DNA of 64,000 nt from a virus (taxonomy: Duplodnaviria > Caudoviricetes), in the IMG/VR virus record IMGVR_UViG_3300029928_000006, positions 1-64,000 of that record; one strand, 5' to 3'. Under the pieces are notes generated by a model. It saw only the letters and a program-made list of their open reading frames with translations, did no database searches and had not been told where the DNA came from. The position numbers were made by a program, and so were the translations under genes. This document shows positions 54,601 to 57,600 of this stretch, in pieces. Each line of letters starts with the position of its first letter. Positions within the stretch are counted from its first letter, which is position 1.

Positions 54601-57600
54601 AGATATTGTAAATATCATGACTCCTGGTAGTTCGTTCATTTAGAGATCAGTTTTTGCGATTGAAGAAAAATCTGGGGAAGGATCTATATAGGGCCAAGAT
54701 GTCTATAATGGCAAAAGATTGCAAATGATTAATAAAGAAGGATCTATGGATGCTGTAATATCTATTGATTACTTCCAAGATGTTTTGCCAAAGAACTTAT
54801 CATTTAATGAAGCTAGACAATGGCTTATAGATCATAACATAATAGGCGAAAATGCCACATCTAATACGATTGGTTATCGTATTCCTACACAGGCTCAATC
54901 ATCTATACATGCTTTACGTTTTGTAGATGTTGTACCTGCTGTTAAATCTACAGTAATACTCCCAACGGAATTTACTAAGATAACTGGTTCGGATAAACTA
55001 TATCAATGTTCGAACCAGTATAATATAAAAAATCGTGTTAATTGCTGGGAACTCCATATCAAATGGACAATCAGCAGCCAAGCCCTTTAAGGGAAGGTTC
55101 AACGACTAATTAAAGATAAAAATTTCCTAAATGGATAATAACGAATATGAAAACAAAATTTAATAAAGAATCAAGAAGCCTTATGATAGGCGCATTATTG
55201 GGTGATGGCTCAATAAGTAATAATAATGTATACAAAATTGCTCACTGTGAAGCTCAAAGAGATTACCTTGAGTGGAAAATAAAGCAATTTAATAATAGAG
55301 GTATAAGAAATACGGGAATTAAAAGTTATATAAAGACTTGTGGGTATAATTCTGGAGTTCCTGTATATTACACGAAGTTATACATGACGCCTTTTACGAA
55401 AGTTTTAAGAAGGGTATTCTATAAACCAAAAAAGATTCTTGGAAATAGAAAGCTTCTCAATAGATTAGATGCATTAGGTATTGCAATTTGGTACATGGAT
55501 GATGGACATATTAATATAAGAAAATCTAAAGAAGGAAAAATTCACGGGTTTTATATTAAAATTGCCATATGCTAGCCAAAATAGGAAGTATAGGTTATTA
55601 TTGATTACTTTAAAGAAGTTTGGAATGTATAGTTTTATATGTTTCACGAAGGCAGAAAAGAAGATAGCTTTTCTTTATGCTGCGGAACGAAAGAAGGATT
55701 AAAATTTATAGATATTGTAAAACCGTACGTTCAACAAGTACCTTCTATGGTACATAAAATTCAATTCGATTTAAGCCAACGAACAAGAAGTTTATATGAT
55801 AAGAAAAGTTGGAGTAGTGAGAAAAGAAAATCTCACGAAATGCACGACACTAAAAATGGTGAAGATATAGTCTGATCTCATTGGTAACAATGAGTTAACA
55901 AAAATGTTTGATATAGACCACCTTTATTTATCTAGATATAATATTAATAAGGATGGTGGTTATAAGTTTGATCAAGAAAGCGAGTAGGGATTACAAAACA
56001 GTATTATTGAAAGTATCCTTACAGTATTGAAGGATGATAAATCCTATAATATTCTTTACAAGTCTATTGATAATGATACCGCTCTTGTAAAGAATATAGC
56101 AGATGAAATACCAGATGCCGGTAACACCAAGAGTGTAGCGTATAACTTTGGTACACTACATGAACAGACTACACGTAAGAATGACTATATTACTGGTAAG
56201 TTAGGTATTGGTCCATTCGCTTTAAATGTGACAAATCATATCCTTACTACGTTATATGGAGTTAAGTTCAGAGAGTCAAACTTTACAAGATTAACTGGAA
56301 TTACAGGATTTAGTAGAATACTTGATGAAGAAGATAATCAGATTTCATCTTGGTTATCCGCATTCATTAATGCTCACGTAGATATTGTAAAAGATCCATA
56401 CATATCAAAGTTAAATGTCAATAGCTTTACGTATAACATGATTAACTTACTTGTAAGGAATGGAAAATGTAAAGCTGGATTGTACTTCTTATGTCAACCT
56501 ATCATTAGGGAGATGGCTAAAGCTGACATAGATTCTAAATCTCAGTTTACAAGAGACCCTAAAGTATTTAAGTCAGCCTTTGAGATGAGAGACGAAAAGC
56601 TTAAAGAGATATTTCCTGATATTACAGGTGGTCCAATAGACTCTAGATATATTAATGATATACTTAACGTTGAAGGTAAGGAAGGTGTCATTAAGAGAGC
56701 AAATATCGTTAATAAGGTTTTAGATAATATTGATATGCTGCAAAATATAGCTAGAAATCCAGGTTTGATAGTAACGGATCAAGATGCTAAGGCATTCTAG
56801 GTTGATTGCTATATTGCGTGGAAAGCTTTAGAGCCTTACTCTAATACTTTAAATAGCCTTGTTCAATATACTAAAATTGATACTCGTAAGCAAGGTAAGA
56901 ATTTCATTGAAATGATGGCTTACTTACGTGGGTATGAGAACTTAACAGAGGCATCAGATAACGAGTCTCTGTTTGATATGAGCACTATTATACGCTTTGT
57001 AAACAATACATGGATTGAGCAAAAGACAAGAGCTGCTATTAATATTCCTATAGATGTTATGTCAGGATAGTCTTTCTAGGGAACTACTGAATTTATGAAT
57101 GCGGTATAGCAATTAGCTGATACATTTAGTAATAGGATACATGGAGCTAAGCATAATCTAATGCGCAATACTAAAGTATTAAAGAAGATTTCTCAAGCTG
57201 CTAGTACAGAAATTAAAGTTAAATACTTTACATAGCTTGCGTAGAAGTTAAATATAGATCTAAGAGGACTATTTGAAGGTAATAGGACAATCTACGATAG
57301 AATCAACGCCTTGAAGGATTGTATATCAAGGAACGCATATAATTTAGAAAGGCTTAAAGATAACTATTTGCTGCAACATCTTATGCCTTATCTACAAGAC
57401 TAGGACGTATTTATTAATGGTAGAATGGTACAGAAGCCTAAGTTTATATAGGTTCTTAATAGTATTAGCGAAAGCAAAATGTCTTCCGATATGATGATAG
57501 AGTCTTGGGAGGAACTATTAAATGATCAGTCCCCTGCCGTTAGAAGTCTTGCAAATGACCTATGTTTCTATGCAATACTTACATCCGGTGATACTAAAGG

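Follow-up and report, generated by a model that had tools for sequence, protein, structure and literature searches.

A putative mobile group I intron within the catalytic DFDID codons of the virion RNA polymerase gene of a TAG-recoded crAss-like phage

How can an active enzyme be produced from a gene that is interrupted in the middle of its catalytic motif? This question is raised by a locus in the 64,000-nucleotide stretch analyzed here, referred to as the window, which comprises positions 1 to 64,000 of the IMG/VR virus record IMGVR_UViG_3300029928_000006 (Duplodnaviria; Caudoviricetes), a contig of 90,074 bp. A giant reading frame breaks off shortly after the codon for the first of three aspartates that belong to the catalytic motif of an RNA polymerase (RNAP), and the sequence that separates it from the rest of the motif, 912 nt on the plus strand (54995-55906), carries a further reading frame with four internal TAG codons. 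The reading favored here, to which a probability of about 0.9 is assigned, is that the insert represents a group I intron, mobile and self-splicing, which lies in phase 0 in the DFDID codons of the virion two-barrel RNAP of a crAss-like phage that reads TAG as glutamine, and that it carries an I-SceI-like LAGLIDADG homing endonuclease. The intron is supported by Rfam matches, intronless alleles, covariation and the pairings P1 and P10, each of which is described below.

Host gene, splice junction and ribozyme structure

When TAG was treated as a sense codon, long co-directed open reading frames (ORFs) were called across the window, whereas the standard code left them fragmented. One of them, at 42620-55090, comprises 4156 codons with 55 TAG, and a second, in the same frame, occupies 55796-58936. 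It can be observed that the long frames are obtained only with TAG as glutamine, which, together with the 55 TAG codons, identifies the phage as TAG=Gln recoded. Exon 1 (42620-54994, plus strand; 4125 codons with the 55 in-frame TAG) ends in ..EFTKITGSD and is homologous to the giant coding sequences (CDS) of cr130_1, cr131_1 and cr272_1, and exon 2 (55907-58936, plus strand; 1009 codons and a stop) begins with FDIDHLYL. The last 500 residues before the break matched crAss-like phages only in a tblastn search, the best matches being the same three phages (Suoliviridae/Oafivirinae), at 44-57% identity. Judged from its sequence, the product of the joined exons is a virion RNAP polyprotein of about 5,134 residues belonging to a Suoliviridae-like TAG=Gln phage.

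The exon pieces of the window gave no match of their own in PDB or Pfam and nothing useful in PHROGs, so that the homology to a known polymerase is visible only through a profile of relatives. This profile (A1) was built from 12 intronless relatives spanning the motif, and the window exons are 42-75% identical to such relatives. It matched chain A of PDB entry 6VR4, the DNA-dependent RNAP gp66 of phage phi14:2, with an E-value of 1.6e-47, and the alignment places tGsDFDiDkLyL opposite TGSDFDIDKMYV of gp66, that is, opposite the catalytic DFDID. In gp66, residues 1361-DFDID-1365 form the metal-binding motif, which is conserved across crAss-like phages; alanine in place of any of the three aspartates abolishes RNA synthesis, and the enzyme is packaged in the virion and transcribes the early genes (bioRxiv 10.1101/2020.03.07.982082). 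Packaging and early-gene transcription are assumed, by homology, for the polymerase of the window as well. Since the motif aligns with that of gp66, the insert parts the first aspartate from the other two.

The position of the break is exact to the nucleotide. The final codon of exon 1 is GAT (Asp, 54992-54994), and exon 2 opens in the same frame with TTT at 55907 (TTT GAT ATA GAC, encoding FDID). Removal of the insert creates the predicted junction ..ACUGGUUCGGAU|UUUGAUAUAGACC.. and restores GSDFDIDHLYL as found in intronless relatives, the junction being exactly the natural intronless sequence. In both cr130_1 and cr272_1, a single giant CDS passes through this point without interruption and reads FTKITGSDFDIDHLYL (the intronless allele of cr130_1 around the junction is GGTTCGGATTTTGATATAGAC), and the uninterrupted reading FTKITGSDFDIDHLYL was also present in 22 of the 28 IMG/VR relatives found with exon 2. 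An intein was rejected, since the insert does not keep the exon frame and contains many stops, and so was an assembly artefact, since dozens of assemblies made independently contain the element.

Two matches to the Rfam group I model RF00028 were found, one covering the P3-P7 half (55036-55145, 45.7 bits) and the other the P8-P9 half (55791-55894, 32.2 bits). All elements lie on the plus strand. P1 is a helix of 12 bp in which the end of exon 1, ACUGGUUCGGAU (54983-54994), pairs with the internal guide sequence GUUCGAACCAGU (55008-55019), with a U54994.G55008 wobble at the 5' splice site. The loop of P1 contains the guide strand of P10, CUAUAUCAA (54998-55006), which forms 9 bp with UUGAUAUAG at the start of exon 2 (55908-55916). 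The 5' strand of P3 (55033-55038) pairs across the ORF with its 3' strand (55842-55847), as shown by covariation, and is followed by the P4-P5-P6 domain with the P and Q elements (55043-55098), recognized by Rfam and covariation. The 5' strand of P7 (GACU, R element; 55104-55107) pairs with 55869-55872, the latter forming part of the S element, J8/7 plus the P7 3' strand (AAGAUAUAGUC, 55862-55872), which is invariant in 27 introns. P8 is a hairpin of 5 bp with an AAAA loop (55848-55861), P9 is a covarying hairpin with a GUAA loop (55877-55894), and the terminal (omega) G at 55906 precedes exon 2, as it does in all introns classified. The presence of extra hairpins or an ORF between P7 and P3' suggests an IA-like architecture.

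The structure read from the window was scored in an alignment of 27 related full-length introns (A2). Standard pairs occupied 93.4% of cells, compared with 33-43% when the partners were slid by 1-3 columns, and 24 pairs changed on both sides. In P3, the strands of which flank the ORF and lie about 810 nt apart, 97.5% of cells were paired and five of the six pairs showed compensatory changes; in P9 such changes affected six of seven pairs. Furthermore, the guides follow synonymous changes in the exons: exon GATATA occurs with guide CUAUAUC and exon GATATT with guide CAAUAUC, and in one intron (L013) a change in the P10 guide compensates the ATA/ATT difference of the exon. The U.G pair at the splice site, the terminal G and the rules for P1 and P10 were kept in 26 related introns. 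A further helix, AUUUC/GAAAU, which might have closed the ORF loop, was dropped, as GAAAU is conserved even where AUUUC is absent. Because intronless homologues carry the exact predicted junction and the helices covary, the observation is far beyond chance.

An allele of 261 nt that lacks the ORF is inserted at D|FDID, with the ends of the window intron, in the close relatives L092, L098 and L099 (L092:2740-3000), and matches RF00028 over the whole model with 87.1 bits. Two small hairpins stand in it in place of the endonuclease ORF, and its P3 differs from that of the window by five compensatory pairs.

These results agree well with the first-pass annotation of this DNA, which had placed a group I intron here that splits the aspartate triad of the RNAP as GSD|FDID. 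The placement is supported by the coordinates, the two Rfam halves, the intronless junction and covariation, and the split of the triad by the match of the A1 profile to the DFDID of gp66. The 9-bp P1 that it described proved to be the core of the full 12-bp helix, and its 9-bp P10, fixing the 3' splice site, was found at that length. It was also correct that the unspliced frame includes only the first aspartate and stops at TAA 55088-55090 (plus strand), which lies in the P6 loop.

The endonuclease reading frame and the reading of TAG

The free-standing ORF of the intron (55147-55875, plus strand) encodes 242 residues when TAG is read as glutamine, with the two motifs GALLGDG (residues 15-21) and IWYMDDG (residues 114-120) of an I-SceI-like LAGLIDADG homing endonuclease. 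It is out of the exon frame and has a conserved MKTK start of its own. As the first-pass annotation had described, it lies between P7 and P3', runs through P3', P8 and the S element, and contains four TAG codons within 20 codons. It begins 3' of the P7 5' strand, and its stop is TGA (55873-55875). The translation matched Pfam LAGLIDADG_2 (PF03161) over profile positions 1-168 of 168 with 1.3e-21 and 77.7 bits (cut-off 25), and PHROG 11023 with 9.6e-19. A phmmer search of PDB with the single endonuclease protein returned no match, and a profile of 24 homologues (A3) matched I-SceI and a related intron endonuclease over ORF residues 4-210, the match to I-SceI covering residues 6-210; on the alignment of this profile to I-SceI, the product is assigned as a single-chain enzyme with two motifs. 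The catalytic residues G19 D20 G21 and D118 D119 G120 (GDG and DDG) are invariant in the 24 homologues.

The four in-frame TAG codons begin at 55573, 55582, 55591 and 55630 (55573-55632, plus strand) and are codons 143, 146, 149 and 162. Codon 149 corresponds to a near-invariant glutamine of the family, written CAA or CAG in standard-code phages, and several relatives have glutamine at codon 162; at positions 143 and 146 the residue varies. TAG149 and TAG162 are common to the introns L011 and L012, and TAG143 and TAG146 occur only in the window phage, where they replace residues other than glutamine. Against the three nearest relatives, the ratio of nonsynonymous to synonymous substitution rates (dN/dS) was 0.02-0.07 for codons 1-142 and 0.05-0.07 for codons 143-215. 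Synonymous change falls away in codons 216-242, where the ORF overlaps P3', P8 and the S element, and constraint at the RNA level would be expected to have this effect. Equal purifying selection before and after the TAG codons, together with the location of TAG149 at a near-invariant glutamine, argues that the ORF is translated through them. A product of 142 residues would be without about 70 conserved residues of the second domain of the I-SceI-like fold, which argues that the full-length form is the functional one. The view of the first-pass annotation that the endonuclease needs TAG=Gln is therefore upheld, and the functional 142-residue product that it had named as the alternative fails. 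The clustering of four TAG within 20 codons has a probability of about 0.002, calculated post hoc, and the TAG density of the ORF (4/242) is similar to that of exon 1 (55/4125). With two codons inherited, two at tolerant positions and a density equal to that of the host gene, there is no need to attribute a special function to the cluster.

The genetic code of the phages that carry related introns was read from their flanking exons. At many intron-bearing loci, no TAG was found in about 1,600 codons of flanking exon, implying that these phages use the standard code, and at such loci the endonuclease ORF has no internal TAG and often ends at a TAG near codon 216. At loci with TAG-rich exons, the ORF contains 1-5 TAG. 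On the endonuclease tree, recoded hosts are intermixed with standard-code ones, a pattern which suggests that the ORF drifts to the code of its host, and that either the family crossed codes repeatedly or its hosts were recoded repeatedly. The first-pass annotation had tied homing to the genetic code and had suggested a survey of code-15 and code-11 phages. That claim was overstated and receives weak support, as introns occur in both, with close relatives at the same motif in standard-code crAss-like phages. Since related introns are present on both sides, the code can be no more than a leaky barrier to homing; moreover, during co-infection the suppressor of the donor phage would be present as well. 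One locus (L051:2501-3235) combines an endonuclease TAG at a conserved glutamine (codon 148) with flanking RNAP exons that have only one TAG each in ~770-800 codons; the ORF may have come recently from a recoded phage, or its host may be at an early stage of recoding.

With regard to the source of TAG decoding, a tRNA gene at 82-344 of the window carries a group I-like insert of about 189 nt (Rfam 27 bits, 106-284) that interrupts its anticodon loop. A trial join of U115 to A305 produces a 72-nt tRNA with the anticodon CUA, an amber suppressor, and CUA is obtained only with that join. ARAGORN called no tRNA on the window, missing the split gene with or without its intron option. It is plausible that TAG decoding depends on this intron-split tRNA(CUA), other sources of suppression also being possible. 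A tRNA-like gene outside the window lies on the minus strand of the same contig (68742-68824; L010:1501-1583) and scores 51.7 bits with intact stems and a 13-nt anticodon loop, UUGGAACAGUCCC; it was called by ARAGORN only with the intron option.

Insertion sites, movement and alternative explanations

A scan of IMG/VR with the endonuclease returned 122 related stretches, and among the best 80 of these at least 48 lie in the RNAP DFDxD motif. Three phase-0 sites are used, namely D|FDID (the site of the window), DF|DID and DFD|ID, and the introns at each have a P1 and a P10 that match that site, with the 5' splice site preceded by U and the 3' splice site by G. The endonuclease tree interleaves the three sites. 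For example, the intron L022, which is inserted at D|FDID (site A), nests among introns of site B with support 96/92, and its ribozyme core resembles those of site B with different guide ends. This suggests that a module consisting of core and ORF has been exchanged between introns at neighboring sites.

Intronless, ORF-less and ORF-bearing alleles all occur among the nearest relatives of the window phage. In comparison with two intron-bearing phages, identity was 95-98% for the ribozyme and 85-89% for the ORF, and 54-79% for the flanking exons; as the intron is more similar than its flanks, it was probably transferred after the phages diverged. Site-specific cleavage of the intronless allele by the endonuclease would account for both the presence/absence polymorphism and this discordance of identity.

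More distant endonuclease homologues were found on contigs of the zeta group (L062-L070), where no DFDxD exon ends and no Rfam match at E < 0.001 were detected; from this it is concluded that these ORFs sit in other genes. Six of these contigs (L063-L068, 120-188 kb) encode endonucleases at 43-49% identity with no TAG in ~222-224 codons, beside neighboring long frames that contain 17-37 TAG. At another locus (L071:1956-2466), two group I matches, one full-length with 99.5 bits followed by a partial one with 44 bits, lie within 500 nt beside an RNAP exon ending in ..NMSGTDF, possibly tandem introns at the RNAP motif.

According to the mechanism proposed, the favored intron would act as follows. 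Once this late gene has been transcribed, P1 with its U.G wobble and P10 would align both exons, and splicing would join GAT to TTT, restoring GSDFDID within the polyprotein of about 5,134 residues; from unspliced RNA, a product ending 32 codons into the intron would be expected. The endonuclease would be translated by means of the phage's own TAG=Gln reading and presumably cuts intronless DFDID alleles of co-infecting relatives, into which the intron would then be copied. A broader proposal is more speculative and is put forward with considerable doubt: the DFDID-coding stretch of the Crassvirales virion RNAP might serve as a common landing pad for many related introns at three adjacent codon boundaries, which exchange a core-plus-endonuclease module and keep site-specific guide ends, and in the window phage the production of RNAP and endonuclease might be the end of a splicing cascade, comprising the tRNA(CUA) intron and then TAG decoding with removal of the RNAP intron.

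Two observations weigh against the intron reading. Taken singly, both Rfam matches in the window stay below the gathering score of 50, which is explained by the ORF splitting the model, and an ATG in the frame of exon 2 at 55796, upstream of that exon, leaves a split gene formally possible. If the insert were dead and did not splice, the RNAP would be made as two polypeptides, of which the N-terminal one would run to TAA 55088 and the C-terminal one would be translated from this ATG onward, and the three CDS that RefSeq annotates at the homologous place in cr131_1 would fit such an arrangement. However, two chains would then each hold part of the Mg-binding DFDID, with foreign residues at either side. 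Moreover, every helix of the ribozyme is maintained by compensatory substitutions, P1 and P10 change together with the exons, and none of the introns classified lacks the terminal G or the U.G pair. The allele without the ORF, in addition, constitutes an entire group I intron by Rfam, so that a non-splicing insert appears very improbable.

The remaining alternatives accept splicing and concern the TAG cluster. On one account the endonuclease is decaying or already off, the cluster marks a gene being lost, and the intron is now inherited only vertically. The low post hoc probability of the cluster is consistent with this, as are the appearance of TAG143 and TAG146 in the window phage at non-glutamine residues and the existence of ORF-less alleles, expected in a homing cycle. 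Nevertheless, TAG is read as glutamine throughout the late genes of this phage, as in exon 1, selection persists after the TAG codons with TAG149 at its near-invariant glutamine, the GDG and DDG residues are intact, and the two new codons fall at variable positions; decay is therefore considered unlikely. On the other account the cluster is a deliberate gate, by which full-length enzyme would be made only once the spliced suppressor tRNA is abundant, homing would be tied to the code switch, and spread into standard-code phages would be blocked. Such timing was proposed by Borges et al. for a TGA-recoded intron endonuclease of Agate phages (10.1101/2021.08.26.457843), the split tRNA would carry CUA if U115 and A305 are joined, and the clustering is again improbable by chance. 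Yet the host gene is itself late and rich in TAG, so that the codons of the ORF add no timing beyond that of their transcript, their density matches that of exon 1, and related endonucleases are found in standard-code phages, with the code states interleaved on the tree. A gate of this kind is likewise improbable.

Other group I matches also occur in the record, which has five in all. A dUTPase-like gene is interrupted, between ..SIGVIDAR and ..DYRGEIMAFMK, by a full-length group I intron (1235-1457) that exceeds the gathering score with 53.6 bits, and two further matches (16351-16701, 59.6 bits; 18160-18327, 42.8 bits) are located among ORF fragments at 15973-18882, which are probably the major capsid gene.

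Significance and comparison with known systems

For annotation, the results imply that crAss-like RNAP genes presented as two "hypothetical proteins" and a small ORF, as in cr131_1, are single genes, the catalytic motif of which returns only after splicing. They also provide a precisely mapped and testable candidate homing element, directed at the most conserved stretch of an enzyme that is packaged to start infection, and indicate that one intron family has moved among phages of differing genetic code. Furthermore, they suggest that some of the "disrupted DxDxD motifs" of crAss-like genomes could be introns of this kind. Current understanding is not overturned by any of these results. The finding is not new in kind, and is a further, unusually well-resolved example of something already reported for crAss-like phages. 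Beyond the first-pass annotation, it adds the three adjacent sites with three allele states and the occurrence in both recoded and standard-code phages. In the literature that was searched, no paper was found that maps this intron inside DFDID or describes the three sites.

The closest known counterpart is the intron of cr131_1 (NC_055902.1; Suoliviridae, Cacepaovirus simiae), which shares the site, the architecture and an ORF of 242 residues with TAG at codons 149 and 162. The two introns are identical at about 85% of nucleotides overall and at about 95% in the 5' ribozyme. They differ in that the ORF of cr131_1 is without TAG143 and TAG146, and that its P8 and P9 carry compensatory changes. 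In its annotation (L002, NC_055902.1, region 60317-61110), the RNAP appears as two "hypothetical protein" CDS and the endonuclease as a third, with no intron feature. With regard to the polymerase itself, the homologous DFDID region of phi14:2 gp66 (PDB 6VR4) is identical to that of the window over TGSDFDID, whereas gp66 is an uninterrupted protein of 2,180 residues and the window RNAP is part of an intron-split fusion.

In Yutin et al. 2021 (PMC7886860), TAG recoding and group I introns in core genes are described for crAss-like phages of the delta group. One LAGLIDADG ORF of an intron is placed there in the block of transcription genes (Fig. 3 legend), and recoded stops within intron ORFs are noted, as are unexplained disruptions within the DxDxD motif of zeta phages. 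In contrast to the present analysis, splice sites, ribozyme structure and the exact position in DFDID are not given in the text consulted, and RNAP is not in the list there of typical intron hosts of the delta group. The Agate phage intron (Borges et al., bioRxiv 10.1101/2021.08.26.457843) likewise carries a homing endonuclease gene with in-frame recoded stops in a phage with an alternative code, and the recoding was proposed to delay production of the endonuclease. It differs from the intron of the window in that TGA is read as tryptophan and that it resides in an early gene of another phage group, compared with TAG=Gln, a late virion gene and a TAG density not above that of the host gene.

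With respect to the enzyme, the A3 family profile aligns with I-SceI (PDB 1R7M) over I-SceI residues 30-231 with an E-value of about 1e-12, and both have two LAGLIDADG motifs per chain. Nevertheless, the sequence relationship is distant, the window enzyme is phage-borne and its predicted target is not rRNA.

In a wider context, the td intron of T4 with I-TevI and the DNA polymerase intron of SPO1 with I-HmuI are self-splicing introns in conserved catalytic regions of essential genes and move by homing, and classical phage introns have their ORF in a peripheral loop and an early stop in the exon frame. The intron of the window shares the catalytic-region site, the peripheral-loop ORF and the early exon-frame stop. 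It differs from those of T4 and SPO1, the endonucleases of which are of the GIY-YIG or HNH type, in its putative monomeric LAGLIDADG enzyme and in the location of its ORF between P7 and P3', from where it reads through P3', P8 and P7'.

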